Virus record (IMG/VR): IMGVR_UViG_3300028797_002668
Coordinates: 71,186 to 135,185 of that record
Source: a virus
Lineage: Duplodnaviria; Caudoviricetes
DNA: 64,000 nucleotides
Reading direction: 5' to 3' (one strand)
The number at the start of each line of letters is the position of its first letter. Positions within the stretch are counted from its first letter, which is position 1. Shown in pieces: positions 2,526-60,647 of this stretch. The position numbers and the translations under genes are program-made. The notes beneath the pieces were generated by a model, which saw only the letters and a list, made by a program, of their open reading frames with translations, ran no database searches and was not told the origin of the DNA.

Positions 2526-5500
2526 CTAGCGTTTCAACAAGTCGTTCGCCGACGTCATCCTACCCTTTGTAATAAGCTTGTACAACTGCTCAGTAGTCAA
2601 GGCGGTTGCACGAGCGTCAACGTGGACATGCTCCTTGGTAAGTGAAGCCTTGCGTATTCCGGCCAACTGGGCATTCGACACTACTTTTTCGTAAATTGAC
2701 TCATCGCCGTCTTCCTCGTTGGCTCCAGCACCCTTGATAGAACCGTCCGTCGACTTCGGAGCGTTGTCGTTGATGTCCTTCTGCTTATATATATTACGAA
2801 GCTTGTCGAAGTCAATAAGGTCTTGACCAGCAATTAATCCGAATTCATTTTCTAGCATTGACTCCATAGTCGCGTTCGGACCGTCCTTGAAATGGTCGTA
2901 CATCAATTTTCCGCCAAAATTTTCGAACATTTCTCGAATCTTATCAAATTCGTTCTTAATCTGTGTAGCAATTAAAGAATGTATTAAACGAGCGTCACCT
3001 CGTTCAACATTTCCGTCCCGGTCAAACCCTTCAATGAAACTTTCATCACTTACAGTTTCCACTTGGTATCCCATAGCTACAAGCTGGTCTTCGGTATAGA
3101 AAACACCCTTTATCCACATACCACGTTTCATATTCTGCACATTGGCTTGCTTCTCTCCAAAGAAGTTCCCCTTTGAATTAGGGTTGTAGTCAGGAACCAA
3201 ATCAGTCGTCTTGATATGAATTCTGCCGTCATTTACAGAAATCCATGCGCCGCCGTCACCGACGGACTCAATATATATCTTTGCATCCGCATACAAGCTG
3301 CCAAGGTAATCTTGAACCATTGCAACATAGTCTTCAGAAAATTTGGAATCGACCGTATTCCGGTACTTCTCAACATATTCACCAGCAATAAGAGCCTTTG
3401 CTGCAGATAGACTTCCTATCATGCCATAATACATAATAAGTTGCTTATATGAACGGTCGTTAAGCGACTTCCACTCAGTCATACTTGCACGGGCGGTCTT
3501 GGAAGTACCATTAGCACCTTGCTTTGCGTTTACCAAGTTCACAAATTCAAGTATGTTCTGCAAAACCAAATCATTTGGAACCTTGTAGTTTCGAATATTT
3601 GCTGGGCTTACATAATGATGACCGTTAATAATGATAGCATTCGTGTAAGCAGACCCCTTCCGCAGAACATATGGTATCTTTGTATCTGGCGACTTGTCAT
3701 ACACATAACCAGCCGCATCTACGTCTACGAAACCAAGCGACATAACTGGGTCTTCTTGGTTGAACATAGCGTCGCGAAACTTAGGAGCATCCTTGTGATT
3801 TACACCAATAGGCAAAAATTCCCAATCAAATAGGTTGGCACCCATCTTGAGACGACCGCACCATACGACATTCAACGGCTTTCCAAATGCACCGTTAGCA
3901 CAAGCCACGGTAAATCCTTCAGCAATGTCGATAAGTTTTTTCATGTCATCACTACCGTCCTCGATAGCCAATCCAGTAATCGGGTCGTTAATTAAGATTT
4001 TTATTGCAAGGCCATAGTTATGCCATGACAAAAACGTGCTTTCCGCACTTCCAGTACACAATAGAGCTTGGTCATCAATAGAACGCATCGTATCGACAAC
4101 TTCGACTTGACGAGCACCGTAAGTATTACGTAAAATACCAAGCAATATGGAAACAGCGTCATATATTCCAAGCTGTGCTCGCATGTCACCTATACGCTTA
4201 GAACTCGGTCTGAAAATTCTCCATCCTTCCGTCTTGTCATCATTGGCCGGTACTTCGCGTGAAATACTCGCATACTTACTTTGGTCGAATGCTCCGTAAC
4301 TCTCAAACGCCCATCTACGGATTTCACTGTCGTAAGGTAAGTACGGCATCTTGTACTCAATACGAACTGGAGTAAGTTCATCTGACTTGCTAGTCGGATC
4401 AAGAGGTAAATATGCACCGTATACAAATACCACAGAACCTTCGGACAAATTACCATTTGTTATATGAAACTCGCGAGACGACTTTGTAATAGCAACGGTA
4501 ACACGAACTCCTTCGGCATTAGTCAGAACAAAATCTGAACTCTTAAACTTAGTTATGGTATGTGGCTGTATCTGTCCAGTCTCATTACCTTCTAAATCCA
4601 TATCAAACACTAATGAACCATTCTTGACATTAGCATTCTTATTAATTGGAACGAACTGCTGTGGCTCGTTCGTATTTTGTGGATAAGATTCATAAACATC
4701 ATTATCTACAAATGTCACTTCAGCCCATCTGACTCCAATTGAACGCTTGACCATCTTGTGACGCGTACGGAAAAATTTACGATAGCGAACACGAACCTTC
4801 TTATACATCAGCACCGGAACCATAAACCGAGCTGGCATATACAAGTAAGGACATGGACGGTCGTTACGATTATCAACATAAGACTTGTTATCAAATACCG
4901 ACTCACCTGTAAACGTCTGGTACCAGCGTATTTTATTAATGGTGTCCATTAATTCAGCATACTTTTCTTTGGCTTCACGCAGTTTCAACTTCTGCACTAA
5001 CAAGTACGCCGGCCCGAAAAACAGTGACTGGACGGTCAGTATATTATCAATTTCGTCAATCGATTCATCCATTACATCGGTAGCAAATTTGATACAACCA
5101 TCGATATCAGAATTCGGTATATCGCCTACATTGTCATACTTATCATATGCCGGAACAAAATCAGATTGCGACATTACATAACCAGCCAAAGAGCACGAAT
5201 CCCACTGTACCACTTTTATTTCAGTGTCATCAGTTAATCCACCATTAAATGCAATAGACTCGCTCCCAAATTTCTTGCGATTTATAGCATCCAGCATGCA
5301 AGTAATATTCCATTCGCATATATCAGCGAACTGCTTAGCCGAACCTCCATATTGAACCGAATCATTATTAAATTCAGCGGTCAAAGTCTCAACGCCTTGA
5401 ATCGTGCTATTACGTTCATTAGGAGCGAATGTTGGATTTACCGGCTTTGTCAAAGTTACCGAACCAGCATCGCCAACCGCAGTGATATCAACAAAAAATC

Positions 5501-7229
5501 CAACGTTACCTTCATATTCGCCATACCACCATTTTGAATACAAATGGTCGCCTTCAGATTTTCCATTTTTCTTGTTAATCATCACTGTAAAATAGTCACA
5601 CAGTTCCTTCTTAATTTCCGCCCAAGTCATCTTCTTCGACATAATAAGATTGTTTGCATATGCATTTGCCGATGACAAGCTATTTGTCGTGGAATAATAC
5701 ATCCACGGTCTATCAGACCGATTAGAAACCCCATACGTATAGTTAGGAGTCCATACATTTACCAAGAATTGGTGCGGCGTCACTGTATAATTTGCTTTAT
5801 GGACATCCATAACCGTGCCGCCATAATTAGCAATAGCACGAAAATGGACGTTTTCAAACCCATTTGTTGTCGGATATGCCGATATATATCCAGCATCCTT
5901 CATCTTGTCAAGTACATTAACACAAGAAGCCAAGTCTATGTAATATGTAACCTCTGTCCCCGGTGCAACCTTCTTCATAAGCCGATCGCTTTCACGACGT
6001 AACTTTCGACGAAGCGATGAAGACATGAATGTTTGTACTCCACCGATTTCCATTATACTATTGTATGTATCGAAATACCGGTCGTTGAACTCATCAGCAA
6101 GTTCGTCCGCATGGTAAAAATACTTCTTGAACGCATCAGAGACATTTGGAATTAGAGCCGTAGCATTCTGTATCGTATTTGTAGAACCGTCAGAACTAAC
6201 GACGGTTTCAGTACCCTTCATATTAGGCAATGGGTTATTATCGCCACGTGTGTAGCACTTGTTCACAAACGAATTCAAACGAGGGTAATAATCTTCCCAT
6301 TTAGCACGACGGTTGAAATCCTTATCGTACGTCCAATCACCGGGTTCAATAACATTCCCGACACTATCGCGTACTGGTTCAGCAAACGAATCGTCGTAAT
6401 AGGTCACTTTTAGACCCATGTTATTCTGTCCCAAGATTTTAGACATATCATTCAATCTGCGAACGAACGTATCATAACCAATTACCATTCCACGTTTTTT
6501 TGTTTTAGACTGGTTGACACTACGAGCGTACCATTTCCAGCCAAGATAACGCGAACCATAGAAACCAAGAGCACCAAGCGCACAGTTCACCCAGTTTTCA
6601 TCAAAATGCAAATCCCAAGGATTCTGATTCGTATCGTAAAACGACGGATCTAGTGGGTTCATCTCCAAACCGCCGGAAATCGGTTCGCGTGTCGCCACTG
6701 ATTTTACTTTTGTCAGGTTCTGCAGACGGACTCTCGGAACAAATGACACTGTAATACCATAGACTGGCGTCCGAAAACCGTCCTTACTAATGTACAGATT
6801 GTCGATAACAGCAACCTTATCTTGACCATCTTGAACATCGTACGCGGCATGTCCCATTGTCAAACTAACGCTTGGCATAGGCGAACTAGATTCTGGTATC
6901 TGTATCATGTTTGCTGACACTAGCTCGTCAATCGGACAACACTCAGCAATAGTTAAATTACGAGAAACATCCTCACCATCCAAATGGTACTCGATAACTA
7001 CCGACGCGTTCACGTCAATTAACGAATCTCCATACTTTATACCGCTGATTTTGTACATCACGTTATTTGTGACATACTCGTTCATACCGACATCGTCGGC
7101 TGTGCCATCTTCATTACCGGTTTCAGAACTGGCTGTACTTTTTAAGTCGATACCGCTCAGATCGAGATGAATCTCGGTCTTAACCGTTTTCTCGATGTAA
7201 AACTTCTCGAAATCAAAAAGGCCAGCCAT
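2526..7229 (-). CDS. Large virion (tail/baseplate?) protein with an internal degenerate peptidase M15-like domain (1567 aa)
   Basis: TMRSIDDQ..L / SWHNYGLAIKI / VWCG..FDWEF match the M15C pattern; late motif upstream. Confidence 0.6.
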   Translation of the reverse strand: MAGLFDFEKFYIEKTVKTEIHLDLSGIDLKSTASSETGNEDGTADDVGMNEYVTNNVMYKISGIKYGDSLIDVNASVVIEYHLDGEDVSRNLTIAECCPIDELVSANMIQIPESSSPMPSVSLTMGHAAYDVQDGQDKVAVIDNLYISKDGFRTPVYGITVSFVPRVRLQNLTKVKSVATREPISGGLEMNPLDPSFYDTNQNPWDLHFDENWVNCALGALGFYGSRYLGWKWYARSVNQSKTKKRGMVIGYDTFVRRLNDMSKILGQNNMGLKVTYYDDSFAEPVRDSVGNVIEPGDWTYDKDFNRRAKWEDYYPRLNSFVNKCYTRGDNNPLPNMKGTETVVSSDGSTNTIQNATALIPNVSDAFKKYFYHADELADEFNDRYFDTYNSIMEIGGVQTFMSSSLRRKLRRESDRLMKKVAPGTEVTYYIDLASCVNVLDKMKDAGYISAYPTTNGFENVHFRAIANYGGTVMDVHKANYTVTPHQFLVNVWTPNYTYGVSNRSDRPWMYYSTTNSLSSANAYANNLIMSKKMTWAEIKKELCDYFTVMINKKNGKSEGDHLYSKWWYGEYEGNVGFFVDITAVGDAGSVTLTKPVNPTFAPNERNSTIQGVETLTAEFNNDSVQYGGSAKQFADICEWNITCMLDAINRKKFGSESIAFNGGLTDDTEIKVVQWDSCSLAGYVMSQSDFVPAYDKYDNVGDIPNSDIDGCIKFATDVMDESIDEIDNILTVQSLFFGPAYLLVQKLKLREAKEKYAELMDTINKIRWYQTFTGESVFDNKSYVDNRNDRPCPYLYMPARFMVPVLMYKKVRVRYRKFFRTRHKMVKRSIGVRWAEVTFVDNDVYESYPQNTNEPQQFVPINKNANVKNGSLVFDMDLEGNETGQIQPHTITKFKSSDFVLTNAEGVRVTVAITKSSREFHITNGNLSEGSVVFVYGAYLPLDPTSKSDELTPVRIEYKMPYLPYDSEIRRWAFESYGAFDQSKYASISREVPANDDKTEGWRIFRPSSKRIGDMRAQLGIYDAVSILLGILRNTYGARQVEVVDTMRSIDDQALLCTGSAESTFLSWHNYGLAIKILINDPITGLAIEDGSDDMKKLIDIAEGFTVACANGAFGKPLNVVWCGRLKMGANLFDWEFLPIGVNHKDAPKFRDAMFNQEDPVMSLGFVDVDAAGYVYDKSPDTKIPYVLRKGSAYTNAIIINGHHYVSPANIRNYKVPNDLVLQNILEFVNLVNAKQGANGTSKTARASMTEWKSLNDRSYKQLIMYYGMIGSLSAAKALIAGEYVEKYRNTVDSKFSEDYVAMVQDYLGSLYADAKIYIESVGDGGAWISVNDGRIHIKTTDLVPDYNPNSKGNFFGEKQANVQNMKRGMWIKGVFYTEDQLVAMGYQVETVSDESFIEGFDRDGNVERGDARLIHSLIATQIKNEFDKIREMFENFGGKLMYDHFKDGPNATMESMLENEFGLIAGQDLIDFDKLRNIYKQKDINDNAPKSTDGSIKGAGANEEDGDESIYEKVVSNAQLAGIRKASLTKEHVHVDARATALTTEQLYKLITKGRMTSANDLLKR

Positions 7230-11337: not shown

Positions 11338-12723
11338 TTAAATCTCGCCGACATCAACATCGGCCATATTCATCACGTCGCGAATAGCGTCGTCAATAGT
11401 GTCGGCATCACCCATAATCGAACCGTTGCCTCGCGTGAGCTGAGACATTACGCCAGCCTCACGCTGCACAAGAACGTCACCCTTGAAATTCTCTGGGTCA
11501 GCGGAGTCTCGGCTCAACACGGCAAAGAAACCGAACTGCTGCAAGGTCTTGTAGTAATCGGTCTTCGATTCTGGAATACCCCATTCTGCAGTCTTATCCC
11601 AGTCCACAGCAAGCTCAGGAGCTGGCTGGTCAATAATCTGGTTGACCTGTTCGGAGATGTCTTGCGGAATCCACGACAAGTCAATAAGAGTACGGTTACG
11701 GATATACTGACCACTCCAGCCGTTGGCCTTCGCAACCTCAAAAATATTCGGACAATTTTCAAGAAGCTGTACGGCAGCTCCTTCGGAAATCAAGGTTTCC
11801 TTGGTCGGCTTGTACGCACCGGTCTTCGGATCGACGAAAGCCATTCCACGGATGTTATCCGAAGTATCGCCAGAAAGTACCTTTGCGGCAAGGTACTGCT
11901 GCGGATAGGCGCAACGGACAAAGTTACCGCTGGTGTGGTTGAAAATCTTAACACCCGGAATGTCAATCTGCGACATATCGGAGTCTCGTGTGATGATAAT
12001 GACATCGTCATAGTCCGGAGCGTACTTCTTCGCGGACGCATAAATCATATCGTCACCTTCAGCGACTTCACATCGGACGGCCTTCGCTCGGAAGAACGGA
12101 GCAATCTGCATCGCATACTGATCCTTGTACTCTTGCCAGTATTTCTTGTCGACGGAGAAGTCCCAAGCGGACGCGGCTCGCTTTCCCTTGTAAGAAGGAA
12201 GAATCGGAGTACCAGTCGTCGTCTTAATACTCCATAGCATATCGCGCTTTTCTTCGGGCATATCGCAAAGCTGGCGATGCTTCAACGATTCGTAAATGGC
12301 CTTCTGTTTCAGAGGAATCTTGACAACGTCGTACTGGTCGTCGCCAATCTTATCAACTTTGAAGGTATAATTGTCGCTGCTTACGTAGTAACTGGTCGAA
12401 TCGTAGTAAATCGTCGCTTCCTTGTTGTAGTAGTCGCGGACGAAATTGCGACGCCACGCCTTCTTGCCTTCCAAGCAGAGAATGATGTCCATCGGATTGA
12501 AAAGCTTGATGTAGTCAAGCATACGGTTGAACATCTTGGTACGCCAGATAATCATCTCCTCGTCTTCCGGGAGAATGCTTCCTAGAGTCTGCTTGCTGGA
12601 CTTTGTCCTCATAGACCACAACTGGTGATACGAAAGAGAAGCCCAGTCAATCACCAGCAAGCGTTTATTCTTGTACGGATAACTCCGTATAGGTTGTTCC
12701 TTAAAATCCATAATCATCCTCAT
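11338..12723 (-). CDS. rnh: T4 RNase H-like 5'-3' exonuclease (FEN/PIN fold); start may be ATG 12711
   Basis: LLVIDW, AWRR, YKGKR, EGDDMI, ITRDSDMSQ, LSGDTSDNIRG, RNRTLIDL motifs. Confidence 0.9.
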   Translation of the reverse strand: MRMIMDFKEQPIRSYPYKNKRLLVIDWASLSYHQLWSMRTKSSKQTLGSILPEDEEMIIWRTKMFNRMLDYIKLFNPMDIILCLEGKKAWRRNFVRDYYNKEATIYYDSTSYYVSSDNYTFKVDKIGDDQYDVVKIPLKQKAIYESLKHRQLCDMPEEKRDMLWSIKTTTGTPILPSYKGKRAASAWDFSVDKKYWQEYKDQYAMQIAPFFRAKAVRCEVAEGDDMIYASAKKYAPDYDDVIIITRDSDMSQIDIPGVKIFNHTSGNFVRCAYPQQYLAAKVLSGDTSDNIRGMAFVDPKTGAYKPTKETLISEGAAVQLLENCPNIFEVAKANGWSGQYIRNRTLIDLSWIPQDISEQVNQIIDQPAPELAVDWDKTAEWGIPESKTDYYKTLQQFGFFAVLSRDSADPENFKGDVLVQREAGVMSQLTRGNGSIMGDADTIDDAIRDVMNMADVDVGEI

Positions 12724-14513
12724 AAGAAGAACTTCTTCTTAAACGGAGATCCAGTCTTGTTGACCTTGCTCTCATTTTTCTTTCGTGCCTTCTCGGCAGC
12801 CTTGCGCTTACGCTCGGCAATCATCGCTTCATCGACAGTAGCCTCGTAGATACCGTCTAGACGAATTTCATTAACCGGAATATCGTCCTTCGCATAGTAA
12901 GTCTTACGAGTTTCATAATGTTGCATCATGTAGTTATACTTGAGACGAGGAGGTCCACCACGGCGAGGATTCGTAAAGTATGACGCGTCGTCGACCAAGT
13001 CATATACATAAGCCATCTTCTTATCCTTATGCGGACGAACTATACGACCGATTGACTGCATCACCATGTAAACTGATTTTGCTGGGTCAGCCATAACCAA
13101 ATTATGAAGTAACTTGATGTTCACCCCTTGCTTCATGCATCCATAGGTTGCAAGAATCATATGACCAGTTGAATACTCTATGGACTTACGAATAGTCTCA
13201 CGCTCGTCCACGGTCACGTCACCCTTGATGATGTGGCAAGTGAACTGTGGGAAGTTCTTCTCTATGAACTCGTGCATAAGTTCCAAGTTCTCAATAGCCT
13301 TGAACAAGATGACCGTATTCTGCTCAGTCGTTATCTTTCCGGAATCTATCAAGAGCTTCAAAACATCACGTCGTGAACTTGTACTGGAACAGAAAGCTCG
13401 CTCGTCGTCAAACGTCGAATATCCAATCGAACGTCGTAATGCGTGAGGGTACGGAATAAAAATCGTGTTAACAGTAACCGGCGTCAAGATTCCCTTCTCG
13501 ACCAGTTCCTTTAATCGAACAATCTCTTCCTTTCGGCCAAGCTGGCTCTCGATGTAACCAGCATCGATACCGTCATCAGGCAACGTACCAGATACGCCGA
13601 CCTTGAAATCGACGGCGTTTACACACTTCATCAAGATATCTCGTAACTTGATGCCACGAGTCGAATGAGCCTCGTCAACGATTACAGCAGTGAACGCCTC
13701 GAAAAACTTCGCTGGCTTGTTCTGGAGCGACTGCCAAGTAGAAATCGTAATAGGCTTGAGCATCACCTCTTCGCCAATATTGGCTGCCGCAAGACGCTCC
13801 TTCTGAGCCTTCGTCAACTTGTCGTCAGAATCTGCATAAATCAATGTGCAATACTTACGAGCATCTTCCCAACCGTAATCGTCATGAAAATCGGAGAACA
13901 ACTGTTCCACCAAGTTAGTAGACGGAACCACAATCAAAATCTTCTTACGCTCACGTTCCAACAAATATCGAGCCATGATGCACATCGATAGTGACTTACC
14001 AGCACTCGTACAAGCGAGCAATGAAATTCGGCGACCGTTCAAGGCACGTTCCACCAGTTTCACTTGATGTTCGTACGGCTTAATCTCGAAGCCTTCCTTC
14101 AAGTTGTGAAGCTTCAATGTCGCAGCGTAGGCGGCAACATCGTCGCTAGTCAATGCACCCCTAGGCGGTGTGTATATATCACGGATAGCCTTCGTCAAAC
14201 CGATTTTGGTTCCGAAACGGTTCTTGAGCAACGCACTGACTCTCGGAATAAGACCGATAGGCAACAAGTGGGTCGCCTTGTTGTAGAAATACACGAACGG
14301 TGTCTTAAAACCTTCACGGACTGCCCATGTGTTCGCAACAGCCTTGTCGTAGAAGGTCATGCTACCAAAAATGAAATTGTTCAGCTTGTTTCCAGCAGTC
14401 GAGTCGGTAGCCGAAATTTTGATAACGGAAAATACGTCGTCGGCCTTGTCAAAGACAACAGACGTAGACGGCTCCGGGTTCTTAACCTCGGTTACTTCGA
14501 CTTCTTCGGACAT
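12720..14513 (-). CDS. uvsW: UvsW-like superfamily 2 helicase
   Basis: PYEHQ, ACTSAGKS, IVVPSTNLVEQ, ISTWQS, DEAH, SGT, QSIGR, VYDLVDD motifs. Confidence 0.92.
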   Translation of the reverse strand: MSEEVEVTEVKNPEPSTSVVFDKADDVFSVIKISATDSTAGNKLNNFIFGSMTFYDKAVANTWAVREGFKTPFVYFYNKATHLLPIGLIPRVSALLKNRFGTKIGLTKAIRDIYTPPRGALTSDDVAAYAATLKLHNLKEGFEIKPYEHQVKLVERALNGRRISLLACTSAGKSLSMCIMARYLLERERKKILIVVPSTNLVEQLFSDFHDDYGWEDARKYCTLIYADSDDKLTKAQKERLAAANIGEEVMLKPITISTWQSLQNKPAKFFEAFTAVIVDEAHSTRGIKLRDILMKCVNAVDFKVGVSGTLPDDGIDAGYIESQLGRKEEIVRLKELVEKGILTPVTVNTIFIPYPHALRRSIGYSTFDDERAFCSSTSSRRDVLKLLIDSGKITTEQNTVILFKAIENLELMHEFIEKNFPQFTCHIIKGDVTVDERETIRKSIEYSTGHMILATYGCMKQGVNIKLLHNLVMADPAKSVYMVMQSIGRIVRPHKDKKMAYVYDLVDDASYFTNPRRGGPPRLKYNYMMQHYETRKTYYAKDDIPVNEIRLDGIYEATVDEAMIAERKRKAAEKARKKNESKVNKTGSPFKKKFFL

Positions 14514-15069: not shown

Positions 15070-15096
15070 TCCTTATTCCATCGTTAGGTTATGTCG

Positions 15097-15125
15097 AATA
15101 TAGCCATTACCAATTTGAAACTCAA
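15097..15125 (-). promoter_or_regulatory. Sigma70-type promoter TTGAGT-17bp-TATATT with the TTCAAA element
   Basis: TTGAGTttcaaattggtaatggcTATATT on the minus strand. Confidence 0.6.
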
Positions 15126-15152
15126 ATTACTCCATTCCGCCATAAAAACAGC

Positions 15153-15334
15153 ATAAAACATGAAACATATATTTGGTTGACGTTCGGACGGCTACGTACT
15201 GCTCTACCGAGCACCAGTCTCAAGTCCGGGTTGGACTAGCACACCAAGTCCGACTCAAAGTTGTTTCTAGGCTCCATCTCAGGGAGCATTTTTGTACATT
15301 TTCGTCCCAATAAAACATGAAACATATATTTGGT
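15153..15334 (+). repeat. Perfect 25-bp direct repeat ATAAAACATGAAACATATATTTGGT at 15153-15177 and 15310-15334, in a hairpin-rich intergenic region
   Basis: Read directly from the sequence; copies start 157 bp apart. Confidence 0.9.
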
Positions 15335-15484
15335 ACTTCCGTAGGCACTGTTCGCGAGTTAACAGTTTGGCATAGTTTAGACTGTCGGATGATGGAATAA
15401 ACTATCGACCGAGGAATATGGATATGACAAGGAAAGCCCATATATATGTAATCGAAAGGATCTCAAAGGTACAAGTGGAAAGAG

Positions 15485-15513
15485 TTGACGATCAAATTTG
15501 GTTTTTATAGCTT
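15485..15513 (+). promoter_or_regulatory. Sigma70-type promoter TTGACG-17bp-TAGCTT for the family-A-like polymerase
   Basis: TTGACGatcaaatttggtttttaTAGCTT, ending 12 bp before ATG 15526. Confidence 0.55.
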
Positions 15514-15525
15514 TGTTCCACGAAA

Positions 15526-17115
15526 ATGAGACCTCGTCAATACAAAATACTGCTTCCAGAACCGGTCTTGAACGATTTTAAGGTTCTTATCTCGGACTAC
15601 TACCGCCAGTACGGTGACGGCAAGAAATCACGTACTTTCGTGGATAGTGCGGCATTCTTCCTTTCTATGCTGACCAACTCGCTTGTGACCGACCACAAGA
15701 AGAACGAGATTACTTCGCTTGATCACCGTGTGCCAAAGGAGCATTGGTGTACACATCTATACTCCCCTATACTTCGCGATATACTTGGGAACGATTATTT
15801 GCTTGTCATCGGTTACCTTGCTAATAAAGGCTTCGTAGGTCGTTCTAACCATTACGAAATCGGTACATGTAATTGCCGTGGACGTAGCAAGGCTTATTGG
15901 TTTACGGCCAAGTATGGTACATACCTTGCAAAGTACCTCAATTCGCGTTCGGTACGTCGTTATTCAAACGAGTCGGTAAAAGTATTCGGTAAGTTCCGTT
16001 CATACACGATTAAGTCCAAGACCGTCCTCGACCGTTGGTTCGCCGTTTTGGAAAAGCGCAAGGAATTTTCGATGTCCGACCCGGTAGTTGAGGATTGTTA
16101 CAACAACTTGTCCCATTTTACCATAGATATGGAAGCTGCGGATGCTACGTTCGACAAGCTCCGTTCTGAGGGTAAGCTATCGAAATACAAGGAGAAGCTG
16201 GAAAGAGCCAAGATACAGCGTTTTAGCGATGTTGGATCTGAGCCGTACGCTATGTACGTCAAGCACGACCGATACGGGCGTATTCATACGAATGTTACTT
16301 GCATGAAGAAGGAGATACGTGCCACCGCATTGCGCTGTGATGGAAAAGAAGTTGGCGAGGTCGACATCAAGTCCAGTCAAGTAGCGTTCATCGTACCCGT
16401 GTTCAGGCGTTATATTGACGTATTCCGTAGTGGATTGACTGAGCAGTGTTCGGATACGTTTATCCAGTTCAAGCCGTTCTGGTACGATGGGCAATGTGAT
16501 TCTACCTTGGACCGCATGGAATCTGAGCTGTGCCAGTTTACTGATTTGGTTAATTCACACCAGATTTATGAGTATTTTGCCAATGAACTGAGTGAGGATT
16601 TTGATCTTGATCGTACAGTTTCTCGTGAAGAGGCTAAATGCGGCGTGGTTTCTTTTTTGTTCTCGCCGAGATACTTCAACGAGGAAAAAGAACCAGTTCG
16701 TGCTGCGGTTAAGCGGGTTTGGGAAGACCGGTTTCCGACACTACTCCGCTGTTTGTACTCTATGAAACAGAACTGCCATGCGGCATTGGCATATGAGTTG
16801 CAGAAAGTAGAGAGCTGGTTCATTTTTGAACGAGTTTGTCCACGTATAACCAACGAAATTGGCTGCCCGTTCTGTACGGTACATGACTCGGTAATCGTTC
16901 CGAAGGACTATTGCGGACATTTGAAAAAAATAATGGATTCCGAACTATTGGAACTTGGTATACCGACTATTACCGAAGTTGAGTATTACGATATGGTAGA
17001 GGCGTCTATGCCTTGTTTGGCCGACGAGGGTTTCTTTGCCGAGATGAGCCGACGCGGAATAAAAACGGTAGACACCTTGTCTTTGGTAGACGAAAACGTA
17101 GCAACTGAGGAATAA
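15526..17115 (+). CDS. Stand-alone family-A DNA polymerase / T7 RNAP-related polymerase (TV-Pol-like), with no exonuclease domain
   Basis: GRIHTN, motif A EVDIKSSQ, motif B REEAKCGVVSFLF, LQKVES, motif C TVHDSVIV, in the correct order. Confidence 0.75.
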   Translation: MRPRQYKILLPEPVLNDFKVLISDYYRQYGDGKKSRTFVDSAAFFLSMLTNSLVTDHKKNEITSLDHRVPKEHWCTHLYSPILRDILGNDYLLVIGYLANKGFVGRSNHYEIGTCNCRGRSKAYWFTAKYGTYLAKYLNSRSVRRYSNESVKVFGKFRSYTIKSKTVLDRWFAVLEKRKEFSMSDPVVEDCYNNLSHFTIDMEAADATFDKLRSEGKLSKYKEKLERAKIQRFSDVGSEPYAMYVKHDRYGRIHTNVTCMKKEIRATALRCDGKEVGEVDIKSSQVAFIVPVFRRYIDVFRSGLTEQCSDTFIQFKPFWYDGQCDSTLDRMESELCQFTDLVNSHQIYEYFANELSEDFDLDRTVSREEAKCGVVSFLFSPRYFNEEKEPVRAAVKRVWEDRFPTLLRCLYSMKQNCHAALAYELQKVESWFIFERVCPRITNEIGCPFCTVHDSVIVPKDYCGHLKKIMDSELLELGIPTITEVEYYDMVEASMPCLADEGFFAEMSRRGIKTVDTLSLVDENVATEE

Positions 17116-17155: not shown

Positions 17156-17641
17156 ATGGCTACTTACATTCGTGAAATTATTTTTGAGAATGAACCTAAT
17201 ATTGGTCGTATACCGGGTACATCCGGTTACATACTTGACAAGGATATGATTGTTGATATCAAGCTGGTCTACCATACAGAAATGACAGACGGTGGTGAGG
17301 ATTTCATTGAAAATGATGAGCACCGTGTCATAGTCCGGAAAGGCTTGACGATGAAGTCGCATCCGTTTCCGAAGTGGTTAATTAGAATGTTGAAATTTTT
17401 AGGTTTAGACCTGTCGCTTGGTATGTCGATGCTTTTGACTGCACTTTACGAGGAAGGTGGCTTGGATGCGTATACTCGTGATCAAATCGACCGCATGTAC
17501 ATTAATTACACGCTCAAGGCAGTAAAGAATCCGGTTAAACGCGGGTTCTTGGACGTATTGATGGGGTTGTTTATTGGCTCTAACCTTGGTTGGAAATGGA
17601 ATTCAGAGGAAACCAAGGTTGCAAGTATAGAGCCTATTTAA
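17156..17641 (+). CDS. Hypothetical protein (weak DUF1353-like resemblance)
   Basis: 161-aa ORF; IVRKGLTM...P.W and DQIDRMY segments. Confidence 0.5.
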   Translation: MATYIREIIFENEPNIGRIPGTSGYILDKDMIVDIKLVYHTEMTDGGEDFIENDEHRVIVRKGLTMKSHPFPKWLIRMLKFLGLDLSLGMSMLLTALYEEGGLDAYTRDQIDRMYINYTLKAVKNPVKRGFLDVLMGLFIGSNLGWKWNSEETKVASIEPI

Positions 17642-22265: not shown

Positions 22266-23773
22266 CATAGCGGCGAGAAAACTCACCCATCTTCAGTGGG
22301 TGAGATGAAAGCCGCTTGACAAATGGGCGGTCGCAAGCTCACGCCCTTCAGGGCGTGGGTAAGACCCGCCGGGTGCAAATGTAAGAAATAAATAACAATT
22401 CAAGGCTATTAAAATAGATATAGTTATTGAGTAAAACTTCTAAACTATAAGTATAGTCAAGAAACTTGATATGGAACTGATAAGAAGCGAAGATACGAAG
22501 GCGAGGATTAAGGCGAGCATGGCTGAGACGCATGCCCGTCGTAAGACGCAGATATGCCGTGTCTTCGAGCTTAAGGTGTCCATACGGCACAATCCCAAAT
22601 CGGTGTTCGAGAAGTTATCCAACTGCTTCAAGGAGGCAAAGTGGGTAATCAACGACATGCTGTCGTTGTCCAAGGACAATCCCGACAACAGCATGTTCGA
22701 TTACAAGTACACCGAGCATAAGGACGTTGTTCACTACGACAAGGACAAGAACCCAGTAACTTCGCCAATCACCTTGCCGTCTGTTCTCCACAGGGCTACT
22801 GTAGCCCAGAAGAAGACCGACATTGTCAACCTTGCCAAGGCCAAGAAGAAGGGTATAAAGGTCGGTGCGCTGAAGTTCAAAAGCGAAGTGAACTGCATTC
22901 CCATCATTACGGGTTTCACGAAGATTTTGGATGCAAGCCATATCACCATTCCTGGTTTCAGGAAATTGAAAGTGAACGGCTTGCATCAGATAGAGTTTGA
23001 GGAATACGAGATAGCGGACGCCAAGCTAATTCGCAAGGCGTCCGGCTACTATGTAAAGCTCACCATTATGTTGCCGAAGGAACCGAGAAACCGCACCCGC
23101 AAGAGTGTCGGCCTGGACTTCGGCATCAAGAACACGATAACGACATCGGACAACAAGACCTACGATTGCAAAGTGCAAGAAACCGAGTACCTGAAGTACC
23201 TATCAAAGATGTTGAATAGGCACAAGAAAGAGAAGGACTCCAAGCGGCGATGGAACTGTAGGAAGCAGCTTGCCCGTGAGCATGAACATGTCGCGAATAT
23301 CCGCAAGGACATCTGCAACAAAATATACCACGACCTTGTGTCCAACTACGATGTCATCTACATACAAGACGAGCAAATCAAGAACTGGCACCAGACGTGG
23401 TTCGGCAAGCAAGTGCAGCATTCTTGCATGGGTGCCCTTAAACAGCGCATTAAGATGCTGGTTAAGGCAGACCGTGCATTCGTGCTGTCCAAGTGGCTGC
23501 CGACAACCAAGATGTGTCCGGTCTGCGGTGCCGTCAATCAGATAGGTTTGGATGAACGCACATATCACTGCGATTGCGGTTATACCAAGCCGAGGGATTG
23601 GCATTCCGCCTGTAATGTACTCTTGTTTGGCACGACTAAACGTGCTGAGTGCGTGGAACACGCCTCCGCTGAGGTAGCCGCCTCTATGCCTCCCGGTTCT
23701 ACTGGGTTAGCACAAGCGGCTCCGTCGAAGCGAAAACTCGAAGCTCACCGCCTTTAGGCGGTGGGTAGTTCAC
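22266..23773 (+). mobile_element. IS200/IS605-family tnpB-only (IS1341-like) element; left boundary approximate
   Basis: Left hairpins 22270-22315 and 22326-22370; right hairpin CTCACCGCC-TTTA-GGCGGTGGG followed by TTCAC (23769-23773); no tnpA in the window. Confidence 0.85.
22471..23757 (+). CDS. tnpB: TnpB RNA-guided endonuclease family protein
   Basis: RuvC-I VGLDFGIK, RuvC-II region IYIQDE, zinc finger CPVCG..CDCG, RuvC-III RDWHSACNV. Confidence 0.92.
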   Translation: MELIRSEDTKARIKASMAETHARRKTQICRVFELKVSIRHNPKSVFEKLSNCFKEAKWVINDMLSLSKDNPDNSMFDYKYTEHKDVVHYDKDKNPVTSPITLPSVLHRATVAQKKTDIVNLAKAKKKGIKVGALKFKSEVNCIPIITGFTKILDASHITIPGFRKLKVNGLHQIEFEEYEIADAKLIRKASGYYVKLTIMLPKEPRNRTRKSVGLDFGIKNTITTSDNKTYDCKVQETEYLKYLSKMLNRHKKEKDSKRRWNCRKQLAREHEHVANIRKDICNKIYHDLVSNYDVIYIQDEQIKNWHQTWFGKQVQHSCMGALKQRIKMLVKADRAFVLSKWLPTTKMCPVCGAVNQIGLDERTYHCDCGYTKPRDWHSACNVLLFGTTKRAECVEHASAEVAASMPPGSTGLAQAAPSKRKLEAHRL

Positions 23774-23816: not shown

Positions 23817-26800
23817 ATGATGTCTCGTAATCTAATTGAAAGCGTCGATCCAGGTACAGTTAATGCCTATGCTAAGCAAGCGTATCAGACTATAGACGAT
23901 TTCCTCGGAAGCGGTAAATCTTTAGATGTAAAACGTCCGTTTGCGTATGGCATGATTAGCGCAAACCCGATTGCTGTATCGATTTTAGACGATATTAGAA
24001 AAAGAGTCAATACAATGACGCCGACTAACGAGCAACAGAATACGGACAACGGCATTGATAATAGTCCGTACAGCTCTGGTATTCGTTATACGGCGGAAAA
24101 TAAAGCCTATTATGTTCGAGGCTGTATTTATTTGGTTTCTACCGTTATCCCAAGCTTGGCTAAATATCTGTTTGATAGAGTTCAAGCGTTTAATGATAAG
24201 TCGGTTCCGAACGAAGCCGTTAACTATGCTTATCTAGTTTTTAAGAATAACTATTTGAACGCATCTGGTAGACAGTCAAATAATCCGATGGCTGTCGCAT
24301 CTCAAAAATTTAGTATTGCGTTTATTAGTGCGGCTGAACTCGGTACAAAATCACGTCCTAATACGGCTGTTGAAGATGATACCTCGGCGTCAAGTGCACT
24401 TTTTAACAAATTCGACAATATCGTATATAGACTTAATTCTGCCGCTGATTTTATTAATGCGGTGTTGATGGCAACTGTAGGAACTGACAAGGCGACCGAG
24501 CAACAAGTAAATTTAGCGGCAAACTTGTTGCTTGCTCGTTATATCGCTGAAGATAATGCCATAAAAAATTCCGGAATTCCGGAAATGGGACGGTTCCTTA
24601 ATAATTTCGCCGAGCGCACTAAAAGTAGTTTGTCTAAGACAAAGAATGTAGCTCGGATAGATGATAATGACACTAGCGATAGCATTAATCAGTCTAATGA
24701 TGATAATACATCCGAAAATATAGTACCTAAAAACATTGACATTCCAGAAGATAAAGCTAACCAGCATACTGTTATTTCTGGCCAAACTCGATTCTTCGCG
24801 AACTCTTATATCAAATTGTTTGCGGCAAACTTTGCCGAGCGCCTTTCTATGCAACCTACGGGTTCTATTGATAGTAAGAATCCGCGAGTCACTCAGAATG
24901 ACGTTATGACGGCAATGCGACTTATTTTCAAGAATTGTATTCCACAAGTGAAGCCAGAACAGCTTACTCCGAAACTAGTTGATGTGATAACTGCCGATAC
25001 ATTGGCTAATAACACAGATGACGCTTTGTTTGTTCACCAGAAAATGGCTGAATATGTGTCTACACAACTGTTCGATGACTTGTTGAAGGAATACAAGAGT
25101 GAAAAATATTGCTCGAAAATTATTGATACAGTGCGTTTGATCTATTTAGCGATGACCAATACACCGCCTGATTACTTGGCTGAACCCGTATATGGTTATG
25201 GTGATTACAACGCTAATGACCGTGTTAAAAAGACTGGACAAACCTCGATTGGTGATGAACTTGCAGCATTATTCGTTAATGATGGAACGGATGTCCATAT
25301 TATGAATATGAACGCCAAATCGAAAAATAATGCAGACAATGACAAAAATAAAAAAGAAGACCCTAGGTTAAAAAGGTTGTCTACGATATCGCTTCATGAG
25401 ATCGATTCGATTCCACTTAGTGATATCCGTTCAGTTGCCAAAAACTATCAATCTCCTAAGTTGGTTCTAATCAAGAATACTTGGGGTGTTCTTAATGGAA
25501 TCGTACCAGCGTCTGAAGTCACCGGCGAAGATTTTGAAGATGCGAAAGAAATTAGTCCGCTGGTGACTAATGTTCAAACGCGTCTAGGTGACCAAGACCC
25601 TGCATTCAGTTTGGCTGATCTAAAGAAAAAACAACAGATTGTCAAGTCGAGAATTTACACGGCTGACAACCGTAGAAAATTGAAGAATGCCGGTTTTGCC
25701 ACGGGTAATGAGAGTGGCTCTGATTTGGAAAACCTTGCTAATACGGTTCTTGAAAAGGCCACTACGGTTGCTGACGGAAATAAATATGATGTTTTGCCAG
25801 CAATCACACGTACCGCTGCCATAGCAAAGGCGTTCACAAATGTCGTTAACACTTATATTCGTAGCTGCACTAATATCAAAAGTGACGCGTTAACGAGTAT
25901 CCAGCGTAAGAAGATTTATGAAGCTACACCAACAGCCGAAGCTTTTGTTATCCAAGGTCAAAGTGCGGTTGACTTCGCTGTATATCGTTTCTTGACTTCC
26001 GAAAAGAATCGAGTAGGTAGCGCCACTAATAAAGCTGACCAAGACGCTGTTACTGCGTTGACGCTTGCCATTAAGAATGCCATATTCTTAAGAGACGGAG
26101 AAGGAGAATATGACGACAAAACCACGAACGATTTGCTAAATAAGACTGTTGGCTATTTTGATAGTTTTGCTTCTTGGAATGCACAGGCTCAAAAAGTTAA
26201 ATTGGATATGTCTGATAATGCTATAGTTAACGCTGATAGTGGCCAGATATCCAACATTATTAAGTTGATTGTTAATCCAGAAACTACTAATCGTTGGTCC
26301 GGTTATTTGAAAACAGTTACTAATGAATCAATTGATCAGAAAACCGGAGACCCTATTGTTGACCAAGAAATTGCAAACCGTAATATTTTGATCGACGGCT
26401 GGAATACAATATTTACTGGAAGTGAGTATACGACCGATGACTTGTATACTGTTCAAGACCTTTGCGATGAGTTTGCTAAAGTAAATCGACCGTATGAAAA
26501 GTTCAACGAGTTGTATACCCCTACTCAGCTATTAATTACTTTGAGTGGGGTTGGTGAAGCAAATCAGACTGATATAGAAGCTGATGGAGAAAACCATGAA
26601 TTCGAGTATGATAATGTACCGACTGAGAATTTGACCCAAGCCGCTCCAGTATCAATATTTGATAAGGAAAATCGGAACGCATTGGATTTGAATCAGCTCG
26701 ATGAAAATCTTGATGATAATAGCTTGCAGCAAGTGTATGGCGATGAAGTTGATGAGCAAGACGTTGCTAAAGACCCAATTGGTTCGTTTGATGACGTTAT

Positions 26801-29786
26801 AAGCAAGATTAAGATTGATACCAATCCATACCGTAGAGCTATGGAACTATTGGATACTATCTCTGTAATGAAGAACACCATTAATCGGTTGAATGACCAA
26901 CTTGGTGTTCTAACAGAGGATGATTCTGACTTAACCGAAACTCAGCAGAACGCGGTTTGGGATTTACAAAAACGAATTAAGGTAATTAACGGATTAGTAA
27001 ATACCTCTACTGAACTGCTTGATAAAGAGACTAATAGAACTCCGGTAATTCGTCAAATGATTACGGCAATTAAAACGGGTTCTATTACGCCGATTGACGT
27101 TAAAAAAGCAAGCCATTACTGGGAAGTCGCTCATGCGAACGCAGATAGTCGTTACAACGTAAAGGCGCAAAGCGAGAACGCTTATACGAATGACGATGTT
27201 TCTACGGTGTCCCACGTAGTGACTGTTCTCGGTAATGAACTGTTCAGTCCGTCTGGCATGGACATTTCTGATGTCTATGACAATATTAAGACTATTCGTA
27301 CTTATGTCGGTAACGCAAGCGGAAACCCAGGGTCAATGAAGGTCATCAATTATGTGATGGATGCTGTCGGCAAACTTGTCAATGCCGACGAAACGCAAGT
27401 ATATGTTGGCTTGGTTTCATTGATTAACAAGATTGGTCGTATCATCGCAAGCGACGATAATGTTATCGAACGTTTGGATAACACATCGAAGATTCATGAT
27501 GCTAATAAGGATGCTTATGCAAAGGATGATGAATTAGATAACCCGATTGACGCATTTGCGCGTGCTCGACTCCGTCCTAAGAACTTTAAGACAACCGGTA
27601 TTGTTTCAGACGCCGAAAAGGCTGAACGTCTTGCCTTCAAAGACAACTTGCGTGCTGCTATGAGTAAGAATCTGGAACTTGCCAAGTATGCATATGCACT
27701 TGGTAAGGCTATGGAGACTTTTGAGCATAGCATTGTCGATGATGATGAACGTTATAGCGACAACGAACGTGCCGAACGTATGTTCAACAGTATTGAAAGC
27801 AGCTTGATCAATGGTAACATGCTGTATGGCGAGATTGCTCCGTCGCTTCCACAACGTATTATCTACAACGCCATTTTTGACGATGAACGTGCTGGTAAGT
27901 TGAACTATCCAGCTACCATGACTGCGGTTAACCACATGGCTAACGGTTACAACCTCCGTCTGCTTGCCAAGGAATTTGTAAAGCCGGGTGGCAATAACGG
28001 ACGTACCACTGGTGCCGAGTGGGCTTCTAAGCGTGACAAAGCCACGTTTACTTACTCTAATACCAATAATTCGTTAACTCCAGTTAAGGCGAATTCTTCT
28101 ATCAATTCCGGCGTAGGCATTGACCCTGATGTGGATAAGTCGGTCATTATTGCGTCTTGGTTTAACCCGGACAATCCGATTACGTTTAACTTGTCGGAAT
28201 CTGAATCGACGGGTGACGTAATAATTTCTAAATATGCTATGACAAGTCTTGTGAAGTCGGCTCGCCGATACATCTGCTCTAAGATTGCGGACAATATTGG
28301 TAAAATAGATGAAATGACTGGTGAAGTCACATTGTCTAATAAGAAGACTTCTGACGCACTCAAGTCCGCCGTTAAATCTATTCACGCGCTGGCCGATGAT
28401 CTTGAAACTCCTATTGCCGACGTTATTGTTGCAACGACTTCTCTAGGCCAGAAGAGTGCTCGTGCTGGTCTTATCGACCGTGCAAAGACGGCGCTTATCA
28501 ACAATGACGAATCGTACACAATCGAAGACATGGGTGATATCGCTTCCGAAACCAACGTGTTTCCTGAACGTGTGTCCAAGGATTTGTCTAAGGTTGACCA
28601 AGACTGGGTCGAAAAGATGACGAGCCTTGTGGCGGCGATTCCTGACGAATTGTCTATCAAGGATGTGATGGCTGCGACGATGATGTACTGCGGTTCTAGG
28701 GCAAGCCAGATGCAGATGATGACTAGACCGTCGTTTAAGGCTATGTTCTCGATTTTGAGACAGTTCCAGAATATGAATAGCCAGTCGGGCGCTCCAATTG
28801 GCTACTTTGGTGATACTAGCGATGCCGAAGTGAAGAATCTTCAAACGCTTATCGAGAATATCTGCAGCTTTAAGCGTAGCAGTAAGACGTGGAGCGAAGC
28901 CGCTGCCAAGATGAAGAATCAGCTAATGGCTTCTATCGACGAAGGCAATACGTCTCGCCGAGTCGGTACTGATTTGCCATCTAGTCCGGCTCGTCAGCGT
29001 CTTGCCCACCTCCGTATGGACCCGAATTACTCTGTTAAGCACGGTTTGGATAGTAACGTATTGGTTAAAAAGATGAACTTGGCGTTGACTCGTTCTAACT
29101 ACCTTAGCCAAGGTAAGTCTAGCCAAACTGTTCGTTTTACAGACTATGATTTGGTAATCGATGTGAAAACATTGGTGTACTGGTTATACATTGCATCCAA
29201 CCAGATGCTTTCGTCTGGTGTAGATATGGACGACATTTACGACGAAGATTTCGTTAACATGGCCGAGTCGTATATGGATAACATCATCATGACGTATATC
29301 ACTGGTGTCAGTCCGAAGCGTTTAGGCTATGTCAAGAATTCGGCTTCTGAATCGAAGGTTCCTGAATCCATTGTATTGGGTGAAGATATGATGGGTCTAA
29401 CTAATACGAAATCTGTTAATAGCAATATGGTGTATGTAGATGGTGTTGGGTTATTGACCAAGGATGCTTATGTTGCCGCTGTCCGTACAGCATATGACAT
29501 GGCGTCTGCTGAAGCGAACGGTAAACCGTCTGACCAGGATATTGCACAAGACTTCAATGTTCAGATGGGCGTGCTTACTGGAAAGTCTTATAATCGTAAG
29601 ACCAATAGCTACGACTCCGAAGCTCCTGTTTATGACGTAGATAAGCTACCGAAGGTGAACCGTCCGAAGGAAACCAAACAGCCTACGGTAATCAAGCAAC
29701 CCGAAAAGGATCCTAAGCCTCAACCGGTAGAGGAAACTGACAAGGACGACGAGTTCCAGCCAGAAGTACATGCGGCTAACGATTAA
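23817..29786 (+). CDS. Giant hypothetical protein (1989 aa), probably an internal virion/ejection protein
   Basis: Late motif upstream; N-terminal NLIES motif; N/D/A-rich; no catalytic motif recognised. Confidence 0.6.
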   Translation: MMSRNLIESVDPGTVNAYAKQAYQTIDDFLGSGKSLDVKRPFAYGMISANPIAVSILDDIRKRVNTMTPTNEQQNTDNGIDNSPYSSGIRYTAENKAYYVRGCIYLVSTVIPSLAKYLFDRVQAFNDKSVPNEAVNYAYLVFKNNYLNASGRQSNNPMAVASQKFSIAFISAAELGTKSRPNTAVEDDTSASSALFNKFDNIVYRLNSAADFINAVLMATVGTDKATEQQVNLAANLLLARYIAEDNAIKNSGIPEMGRFLNNFAERTKSSLSKTKNVARIDDNDTSDSINQSNDDNTSENIVPKNIDIPEDKANQHTVISGQTRFFANSYIKLFAANFAERLSMQPTGSIDSKNPRVTQNDVMTAMRLIFKNCIPQVKPEQLTPKLVDVITADTLANNTDDALFVHQKMAEYVSTQLFDDLLKEYKSEKYCSKIIDTVRLIYLAMTNTPPDYLAEPVYGYGDYNANDRVKKTGQTSIGDELAALFVNDGTDVHIMNMNAKSKNNADNDKNKKEDPRLKRLSTISLHEIDSIPLSDIRSVAKNYQSPKLVLIKNTWGVLNGIVPASEVTGEDFEDAKEISPLVTNVQTRLGDQDPAFSLADLKKKQQIVKSRIYTADNRRKLKNAGFATGNESGSDLENLANTVLEKATTVADGNKYDVLPAITRTAAIAKAFTNVVNTYIRSCTNIKSDALTSIQRKKIYEATPTAEAFVIQGQSAVDFAVYRFLTSEKNRVGSATNKADQDAVTALTLAIKNAIFLRDGEGEYDDKTTNDLLNKTVGYFDSFASWNAQAQKVKLDMSDNAIVNADSGQISNIIKLIVNPETTNRWSGYLKTVTNESIDQKTGDPIVDQEIANRNILIDGWNTIFTGSEYTTDDLYTVQDLCDEFAKVNRPYEKFNELYTPTQLLITLSGVGEANQTDIEADGENHEFEYDNVPTENLTQAAPVSIFDKENRNALDLNQLDENLDDNSLQQVYGDEVDEQDVAKDPIGSFDDVISKIKIDTNPYRRAMELLDTISVMKNTINRLNDQLGVLTEDDSDLTETQQNAVWDLQKRIKVINGLVNTSTELLDKETNRTPVIRQMITAIKTGSITPIDVKKASHYWEVAHANADSRYNVKAQSENAYTNDDVSTVSHVVTVLGNELFSPSGMDISDVYDNIKTIRTYVGNASGNPGSMKVINYVMDAVGKLVNADETQVYVGLVSLINKIGRIIASDDNVIERLDNTSKIHDANKDAYAKDDELDNPIDAFARARLRPKNFKTTGIVSDAEKAERLAFKDNLRAAMSKNLELAKYAYALGKAMETFEHSIVDDDERYSDNERAERMFNSIESSLINGNMLYGEIAPSLPQRIIYNAIFDDERAGKLNYPATMTAVNHMANGYNLRLLAKEFVKPGGNNGRTTGAEWASKRDKATFTYSNTNNSLTPVKANSSINSGVGIDPDVDKSVIIASWFNPDNPITFNLSESESTGDVIISKYAMTSLVKSARRYICSKIADNIGKIDEMTGEVTLSNKKTSDALKSAVKSIHALADDLETPIADVIVATTSLGQKSARAGLIDRAKTALINNDESYTIEDMGDIASETNVFPERVSKDLSKVDQDWVEKMTSLVAAIPDELSIKDVMAATMMYCGSRASQMQMMTRPSFKAMFSILRQFQNMNSQSGAPIGYFGDTSDAEVKNLQTLIENICSFKRSSKTWSEAAAKMKNQLMASIDEGNTSRRVGTDLPSSPARQRLAHLRMDPNYSVKHGLDSNVLVKKMNLALTRSNYLSQGKSSQTVRFTDYDLVIDVKTLVYWLYIASNQMLSSGVDMDDIYDEDFVNMAESYMDNIIMTYITGVSPKRLGYVKNSASESKVPESIVLGEDMMGLTNTKSVNSNMVYVDGVGLLTKDAYVAAVRTAYDMASAEANGKPSDQDIAQDFNVQMGVLTGKSYNRKTNSYDSEAPVYDVDKLPKVNRPKETKQPTVIKQPEKDPKPQPVEETDKDDEFQPEVHAAND

Positions 29787-59317: not shown

Positions 59318-59525
59318 CGAACTGCCGTCCCACGGAAGAGCGGTCGCCATTTTTCCGCATCACAATGGCAACGAGTTCGCTTGTTGGAATGATTACCACC
59401 AGTGCTGGGACACGCCGGACGGGGATGACTACATGTGCGATAAGGATTCCGTGTTTTGTTGGTTCGAAATTCCGGACGTTCCCCAAGAATTGAAAGATGA
59501 ATGGGCAAATGGTAAATCCAAATAG
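59289..59525 (+). CDS. Small hypothetical protein (DUF551-like)
   Basis: MEPNWKKVIDELP ... WFEIPDVP pattern; GAGGA RBS. Confidence 0.55.
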   Translation: MEPNWKKVIDELPSHGRAVAIFPHHNGNEFACWNDYHQCWDTPDGDDYMCDKDSVFCWFEIPDVPQELKDEWANGKSK

Positions 59526-60540: not shown

Positions 60541-60569
60541 TTTGGCGCCGTCTTTGATGTTCTAAACGG

Positions 60570-60616: not shown

Positions 60617-60647
60617 TTGTGGAAACAAACGTACCATGAGGTAAACT

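Follow-up and report, generated by a model that had tools for sequence, protein, structure and literature searches.

The locus analyzed here lies in a window of 64 kb that forms the end of a 135-kb IMG/VR viral contig (IMGVR_UViG_3300028797_002668) and associates a gene encoding an additional polymerase of 529 amino acids (aa) with a 456-bp non-coding gap that very probably contains a replication origin. The contig is 36% complete according to CheckV. Since this polymerase is 99% identical to a protein encoded on a 486-kb contig, it belongs to a huge phage, with a genome size that we estimate at about 0.4-0.5 Mb. This cattle-rumen phage is present in DNA runs from bovine gut or rumen. Other genes of the window code for a PolB-type DNA polymerase, a DnaB-like helicase, a primase, a protein that binds single-stranded DNA (SSB) and a clamp loader. 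Therefore, the 529-aa protein is an extra polymerase, in a phage that already has its own replication polymerase and primase, as stated in a preliminary description of this DNA made from the sequence alone. Its gene diverges from a leftward operon across the gap (Table 1), which is indeed the longest credible intergenic gap of the window.

Twin boxes, polymerase and GC skew at the gap

The gap carries a perfect 25-nt direct repeat (boxes 1 and 2 in Table 1), for which 0.01 matches are expected by chance, and was thus rightly described as repeat-rich. No further copy of the box was found in the 135-kb contig, nor outside the module in near-complete relatives. The relatives, which were gathered by identity look-up and by a scan of viral contigs, carry, upstream of the gene and on the same strand as the polymerase, two direct copies of the box that are 96-186 nt apart (about 17 loci, 25-83% protein identity). 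Across this whole range of identity, the gene is located directly downstream of the boxes and in the same orientation. The copies are near-identical within one genome and diverge between clades, the common core being AAACAT followed by six AT-rich bases and then GG (AG or GT in a few loci). Hence, the proposal of a dedicated module made of a polymerase and a non-coding element is borne out by a pairing that is kept down to 25% identity and by boxes that are unique in the genome. The expectation that homologues would keep the adjacent element holds for the twin boxes, whereas the terminator-like hairpin of the gap is present only in the closest clade. Furthermore, in 17 of the 19 loci, a conserved motif, [AG]TAAACT, follows box 2 at a distance of 76-134 nt. 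This third element, in the form [AG]TAAACT(C), shares TAAAC with the box core and abuts the polymerase promoter in some clades.

Some promoter functions were considered for the boxes. A Bacteroidota -7 promoter (TATATTTG in the box) was rejected since the match is confined to the clade of the window phage, and a general phage promoter was ruled out since there are only two copies per genome. The boxes could also be promoters for a cellular-type RNA polymerase (RNAP) with a special sigma factor, the polymerase gene being its regulated target. TGAAAC/GGAAAC-N16-CGTA/CGAA is matched by the window's box 2, by box 1 of L013 and by the boxes found in L004, L014 and L006, and the TGAAAC-N16-CG(T/A)A form found in this clade presumably resembles the promoter consensus of extracytoplasmic function (ECF) sigma factors, for which small autoregulated regulons are typical. 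However, what the other clades keep is AAACAT-N6-GG and not the CGT element, there are only two sites per genome of 260-480 kb and no sigma gene was found near the locus. We therefore consider this explanation to be very unlikely.

The 529-aa protein is related to known polymerases by its fold. It has no match in Pfam at E values up to 10, in NCBIfam or, with a single sequence or a profile as a query, in PDB; no sequence-level match was obtained with DNA_pol_A (PF00476), RNA_pol (PF00940) or any solved family-A chain, and PHROGs gave one weak match to a family of unknown function. A confident AlphaFold2 model built from 45 relatives (pLDDT 85.7, pTM 0.74) has family-A DNA polymerases as its top Foldseek matches, all with a probability of 0.99-1.0. 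For residues ~176-480, VIA-align gave 13.0 for the yeast mitochondrial RNAP, 12.5 for the Klenow fragment, 12.3 for both Pol theta and T7 DNA polymerase, 10.4 for T7 RNAP and 8.6 for N4 RNAPII, the first 21 rows all belonging to the Pol I/T7 RNAP superfamily. The structure prediction that had been suggested as a check against PolA and T7 RNAP thus recovered the palm fold. The core comprises two antiparallel thumb helices (202-214 and 220-237), a hairpin (245-255) carrying R252, a palm of the RNA recognition motif (RRM) type with two catalytic Asp on the strands of motifs A and C (the motif A strand ends in D280), a fingers insertion that carries R367xxxK371 and a hairpin bearing motif C (H453-D454-S455). 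The family-A/T7-like identity announced earlier therefore stands as an assignment made at the level of the fold and motifs of the model, whereas sequence searches in Pfam, NCBIfam and PDB do not recover it.

The motifs read D280-IKSS-Q285 (motif A), R367xxxK371...F379 (motif B) and T-V-H453-D454-S455 (motif C), with Q426xxE429 between motifs B and C. In 235 aligned relatives, K371, E429, H453 and D454 are invariant, D280, Q285 and R252 are each conserved in 234 and S455 in 222. The palm and finger motifs reported earlier are therefore real and intact, and their near-invariance indicates that the enzyme is under selection to remain catalytically active. Taken with the model, this makes it very likely that the open reading frame (ORF) encodes a member of the Pol I/T7 RNAP superfamily that works as a template-dependent polymerase. 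As previously noticed, the protein has no 3'-5' exonuclease domain in the model; residues 1-178 form instead a winged-helix-like domain, so that the term "stand-alone" does not suit this polymerase. According to the model, this N-terminal domain is a candidate for the reader of the boxes. A weak search found no longer or fused form of the polymerase. The family is large: 111 clusters were found by word-indexed search and 1,829 representative clusters at E values up to 1e-3, all of them unnamed and many carried by contigs of 250-500 kb. Two observations concern the gene itself. The GTG start called for the homologue of L009 (3001-3111) is probably wrong, since the conserved N-terminus begins 37 codons later, and the corrected start would put box 2 about 130 nt upstream. 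In addition, no RNA run was among those listed for this phage, and four runs yielded just two short contigs within the ORF, which come from what is probably a DNA library, three bovine RNA runs giving no match; these data have no bearing on expression.

The cumulative GC skew of the 135-kb contig reaches its global minimum at position 15340 of the window, just past box 2, in agreement with the suggestion of an origin near 15.3 kb. On the left of this position, the plus-strand skew is -0.084 for plus-strand genes and -0.093 for minus-strand genes; on the right, it is +0.080 and +0.042, respectively. Since the sign of the skew is set by the side and not by the strand of the genes, it tracks the replication side and not transcription. 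Moreover, the genes diverge from 15340, most of those on its left being oriented to the left and most of those on its right to the right. The features of a bidirectional origin are therefore all found here (global skew minimum, independence from gene strand and divergent genes), and 15070-15525 is very probably such an origin. In four related genomes (81-100% complete, 260-422 kb), the global skew minimum is 0.02-3.3 kb from the module. In G004 (308 kb, a 70% relative), it is located at 83551, 4 nt past box 2 (83529-83547). It is about 0.4 kb from the boxes in G003 (260 kb), about 1.9 kb from the boxes in G001 (348 kb) and about 3 kb from the gene start in G002 (422 kb, with direct terminal repeats). 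Next to nothing is known of the origins and initiators of huge phages, and this locus provides a precise candidate origin of about 200 bp that comprises two boxes and a third motif.

Inter-box stretch and neighbouring genes

In the relatives showing 83% and 69% identity, an endonuclease V (nfi) gene of about 0.7 kb, with its own host-type promoter and terminator, separates the two boxes (PF04493, E about 1e-64; 2027-2710 in L013, 2047-2733 in L006). The boxes thus tolerate a separation of 0.8 kb. The window phage has lost this gene, of which the last ~48 nt and the terminator remain. An equivalent hairpin follows the gene or its remnant in L004 and in L015/L006 and is absent from the other clades. 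RNA folds of the two repeat units are no better than those of shuffled sequences (z -1.46 and -0.15), and neither Rfam nor tRNA searches of the gap gave any match. Together with the restriction of the terminator to one clade and the nfi remnant, this ruled out a small structured RNA between the boxes. Hence, the stretch that separates them is cassette debris and not a conserved non-coding RNA. The description of the gap as "hairpin-rich" is not upheld by these folds, and the idea of a polymerase acting on a structured RNA or single-stranded DNA template is not supported since there is no excess structure and the remnant occupies a place that tolerates a 0.7-kb gene.

Table 1. Features of the probable origin locus and of its surroundings (positions in the window)
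Feature	Position	Strand	Basis or remark
UvsW-like superfamily 2 (SF2) helicase	12720..14513	-	PDB 2oca (T4 UvsW), E 1.6e-48; Pfam DEAD/ResIII/Helicase_C
Small conserved protein, 184 aa	14515..15069	-	Placed between helicase and gap by synteny
Intergenic gap, 456 bp	15070..15525		
Promoter-like site of the leftward operon, TTGAGT-17-TATATT	15097..15125	-	Consensus scan; inside a block conserved in relatives
Box 1, ATAAAACATGAAACATATATTTGGT	15153..15177	+	Perfect 25-nt direct repeat
3' remnant of the nfi gene, including stop codon, ~48 nt	15192..15239	+	75-90% identity to the end of the L013 PF04493 gene
Terminator-like hairpin and T-run, part of the nfi cassette	15271..15296	+	Scan
Box 2, identical to box 1 (ATAAAACATGAAACATATATTTGGT)	15310..15334	+	Perfect 25-nt direct repeat
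Third element, ATAAACT, ~77 nt after box 2	15397..15403	+	Conserved motif
Proximal promoter-like block of the polymerase gene, TTGACG ... TAGCTTTG	15485..15515	+	Conserved in close relatives
Polymerase ORF, 529 aa	15526..17115	+	
N-terminal domain, residues 1-178, predicted winged-helix-like	15526..16059	+	Structure model
Predicted minimal family-A/T7-RNAP-like core: thumb helices, Arg hairpin, palm, fingers, short C-terminal tail	16060..17115	+	Model, Foldseek, VIA-align, invariant residues
Downstream gene, 161 aa, DUF1353-like	17156..17641	+	Language-model feature score 0.94 to PF07087 clusters; no match in Pfam itself

The promoter-like block that precedes the polymerase gene was not flagged by the sigma-70 consensus scan; its second element fits TAnnTTTG, which we take to be the Bacteroidota -7 consensus. 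On the other side of the gap, the leftward operon encodes successively the 184-aa protein, the UvsW homologue, a 5'-3' exonuclease, a protein with a glycosyltransferase domain and SbcC. Its identification as a uvsW operon was correct, the similarity to T4 UvsW being clear (Table 1). The helicase gene is the first large gene of this operon and its synteny is kept in all relatives examined, the order UvsW, small ORF, gap and polymerase being conserved. Counterparts of the 184-aa protein (146-188 aa in L002, L004, L006, L008 and L009) are always located between the helicase and the gap. Neither this protein nor the 161-aa protein encoded on the other side has a family match in Pfam, PHROGs or NCBIfam. 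The 161-aa gene is co-oriented with the polymerase gene and syntenic only in relatives with at least 49% identity, and its membership of the module is doubtful. Farther away, about 7 kb to the right of the origin, a TnpB/IS605 OrfB-type gene (22471-23757, plus strand) encodes a PF01385 domain and a Cas12f1-like TNB domain (phrog_506 transposase, E 4e-45). The window also includes two very large ORFs, one of 1567 aa (2526-7229, minus strand), whose product has no PHROG match, and one of 1989 aa (23817-29786, plus strand).

A candidate initiator polymerase

Among the functions proposed in the preliminary description, the priming of an origin is favoured by the location of the boxes at the GC-skew origin. 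From the linkage between gene and boxes, their direction, their uniqueness and the precedents discussed below, we infer that the protein would bind the boxes, initiate de novo and deliver a product that primes replication. It seems to us about as likely as not that the enzyme initiates replication by acting at the boxes, as an origin-specific initiator polymerase. In such a mechanism, the N-terminal winged-helix-like domain would read the twin boxes that are unique in the genome (AAACAT, six AT-rich bases, GG). At the GG or close to it, the minimal family-A palm-fingers core would then initiate a strand de novo and extend it to the right. The resulting short primer, or an R-loop or D-loop, would be passed to the PolB replisome of the phage, and the displaced strand would allow the DnaB-like helicase and the primase to establish the fork that moves to the left. 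Loops of this kind could subsequently be taken apart by the adjacent UvsW-like helicase, which is what T4 UvsW does.

Among the families described so far, divPolA2 comes nearest (Yutin et al. 2024, Virol J 21:200; PMC11348598). Its representative AUR84708 gave no direct match, either with hhalign (probability 0.5%) or with the hidden Markov model (HMM) built from the 235 sequences. This HMM matches ORF100 of phage ICP1 (31 bits, E 4e-10 among 68 ORFs), which itself matches AUR84708 by BLASTP (2e-11), thereby providing a transitive link to divPolA2. The homologue of ORF100 is located at 58,951-60,618 in ICP1_2006_E, and the early theta-replication coverage of that phage is reported to peak "near the 60 kb position" (Barth et al., PMC7145576). 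This proximity is suggestive, although of low resolution. The GC skew of ICP1 follows transcription modules and did not locate any origin. Some ICP1 isolates (MW794152.1, 57744-59033, and others) also encode a full-length homologue of AUR84708 (41.7% identity), a few kb from the position of ORF100. Such isolates would therefore possess a pair of paralogues in the vicinity of the mapped theta origin.

The nature of the product can be approached from the active site. Motif equivalences were established by reading the E. coli Pol I and T7 RNAP sequences and matching positions by the spacing of the motifs, not by superposition; they rest on this spacing and on the topology of the model because hhalign produced no meaningful alignment of the family profile with E. 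coli Pol I, T7 RNAP or AUR84708, each taken as a single sequence. The residue located five positions after the motif A Asp (D+5), which is E710 in Klenow (the steric gate) and G542 in T7 RNAP, is a Gln in 234 of 235 relatives. The residue located eight positions after the motif B Lys (K+8), Y766 in Klenow and Y639 in T7 RNAP, is a Phe in 198 relatives and a Tyr in 34 of the 235. Motif C reads HDS, as in T7 RNAP (IHDS), Klenow having VHDE. Thus, the Gly and Tyr expected of a T7-like RNAP at D+5 and K+8, where they admit and sense the 2'-OH, are not the residues found here, whereas its H-D-S is present. Q285 and F379 lean towards the use of deoxynucleoside triphosphates (dNTPs), whereas motif C is RNAP-like.

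This bears on the possibility that the enzyme is a private single-subunit RNAP, whose only promoters would be the boxes and which would transcribe its own gene and neighbouring ones, any effect on replication being secondary. Promoters of phage single-subunit RNAPs consist of a specific core, an AT-rich stretch and then GG, and the boxes have a similar layout. Both boxes point into the gene, motif C agrees with T7 RNAP and an RNAP activity has also been raised for divPolA2 (PMC11348598). However, D+5 is an invariant Gln and not a Gly, K+8 is mostly a Phe and not a Tyr, and the polymerase gene has its own conserved host-type promoter block. Furthermore, a polymerase devoted to one or two genes has no obvious use and would not explain why the skew minimum coincides exactly with this place. 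A private RNAP is therefore quite improbable.

Alternatively, the protein may be an accessory DNA polymerase involved in repair or gap filling that merely lies beside the origin, the boxes being bound by another initiator such as the 184-aa protein or a host factor. A role in repair was proposed for divPolA2 (PMC11348598), and the bulky Q285 at the steric-gate position, like F379, favours dNTP use. In relatives, the same gap harbors a repair gene, endonuclease V; UvsW, the 5'-3' exonuclease and SbcC are recombination or repair proteins, and distant members of the family are not found at origins. On the other hand, a repair enzyme does not account for a gene that is always directly downstream of the boxes and co-oriented with them. 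To a lesser extent, a sequence-reading N-terminal domain would be unexpected in such an enzyme, and family searches found no candidate for an alternative box-binder among the neighbour proteins. Overall, a repair polymerase is a somewhat unlikely explanation.

Several points weigh against the enzyme being an origin-specific initiator. First, the gene and the origin could be adjacent only because replication genes cluster. Second, the related genomes share synteny and the five skew results are therefore not independent, although the feature is stable all the same. Third, two distant members of ~400 aa from low-GC phages (G006 and G008) lack twin boxes and do not coincide with a skew minimum; the link with the origin therefore belongs to the clade of ~500-550-aa proteins and not to the whole family. 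One of these members (G008:C1:55582-56700, on a 314-kb low-GC phage contig) carries one in-frame TGA, which may reflect recoding, a sequencing error or a pseudogene. Fourth, the endonuclease V gene present between the boxes of relatives means that no fixed spacing is needed, which weakens the picture of cooperative iterons. Finally, the substrate signals given above are mixed, and the ICP1 peak, taken from the text, is positioned to about a kilobase in a CRISPR-deleted derivative.

The initiator reading can be extended to a self-contained protein of ~530 aa that would combine a sequence-reading domain with a minimal family-A polymerase and lay the first strand de novo at two private start sites, possibly as a DNA primer given Q285 and F379. 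Such an enzyme would replace the combination of an origin-binding protein and a primase, or transcript-primed routes, and would be a living intermediate between Pol I and T7-type RNAPs. This extension is tentative and we hold it to be possible but doubtful. The candidate initiator belongs to the polymerase superfamily from which both Pol I and T7 RNAP arose. Should this enzyme start chains at the boxes, a single small protein would unite the recognition of the origin with priming. If so, this compact sequence-specific polymerase might also be of biotechnological use, and there would be a function for the divPolA2-like "second polymerases" of phages, which are unexplained. The distant homologue encoded by ICP1, a cultivable phage, makes the idea testable at the bench.

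Comparison with known systems

Like the 529-aa protein, divPolA2 proteins consist of a palm-fingers core without exonuclease or canonical thumb and of an unrelated globular N-terminal domain, are additional to the regular DNA polymerase and have mitochondrial RNAP and N4 RNAP among their top structural matches. By contrast, their genes have a variable neighbourhood without any link to an origin and were found in marine phages of 80-130 kb, whereas the gene described here is fixed beside twin boxes at a skew origin in huge phages of the rumen. In a literature search, no publication was found that connects an enzyme of the divPolA2 type with an origin.

The minimal core of TV-Pol comprises a two-helix thumb, a beta-hairpin with a conserved Arg, a palm with two Asp and RxxxK fingers (Iyer, Abhiman and Aravind 2008, PMC2579912). 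All of these have a counterpart in the model (helices 202-214 and 220-237, hairpin 245-255 with R252, D280 and D454, R367xxxK371). The "TV-Pol type" announced earlier is thus retained for the architecture of the core; membership has no support at the sequence level and no association or fusion with a D5-like helicase was found, the neighbour being instead a UvsW SF2 helicase encoded on the opposite strand. CCPol-MP of SCCmec, a characterised member of the TV-Pol family, is also a minimal family-A polymerase, which uses dNTPs to prime de novo at a favoured site adjacent to its operon (Bebel 2020, PMC7581432; Rice 2023, PMC10061031). A role in priming the replication of a mobile genome, proposed or shown for TV-Pol and CCPol-MP, would be shared by the enzyme described here. 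CCPol-MP has a small, tightly bound SSB partner with an oligonucleotide/oligosaccharide-binding (OB) fold, encoded next to it. No such partner was recognised adjacent to the phage enzyme; the 161-aa protein is DUF1353-like by language-model features and the 184-aa protein has no assignable fold. Moreover, the phage enzyme differs from both in having its own N-terminal domain, which is putatively DNA-reading.

T7 provides another precedent. Its tandem promoters phi1.1A and phi1.1B, located directly beside the RNAP gene, are its primary origin. The likeness lies in the shared superfamily, in two tandem sites of the same direction, specific to the enzyme in T7 and possibly here, by the polymerase gene and in the HDS motif C. 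However, the core described here is one third smaller than T7 RNAP, lacks the T7-type N-terminal domain and specificity loop and has Q in place of G542 and F in place of Y639. Furthermore, T7 promoters are found genome-wide, whereas the boxes are present only at the origin. Finally, mitochondrial RNAP, which acts as a primase at the origins of mitochondrial DNA, is also a general transcriptase and needs accessory factors, whereas the role of the phage enzyme would be limited to the origin.

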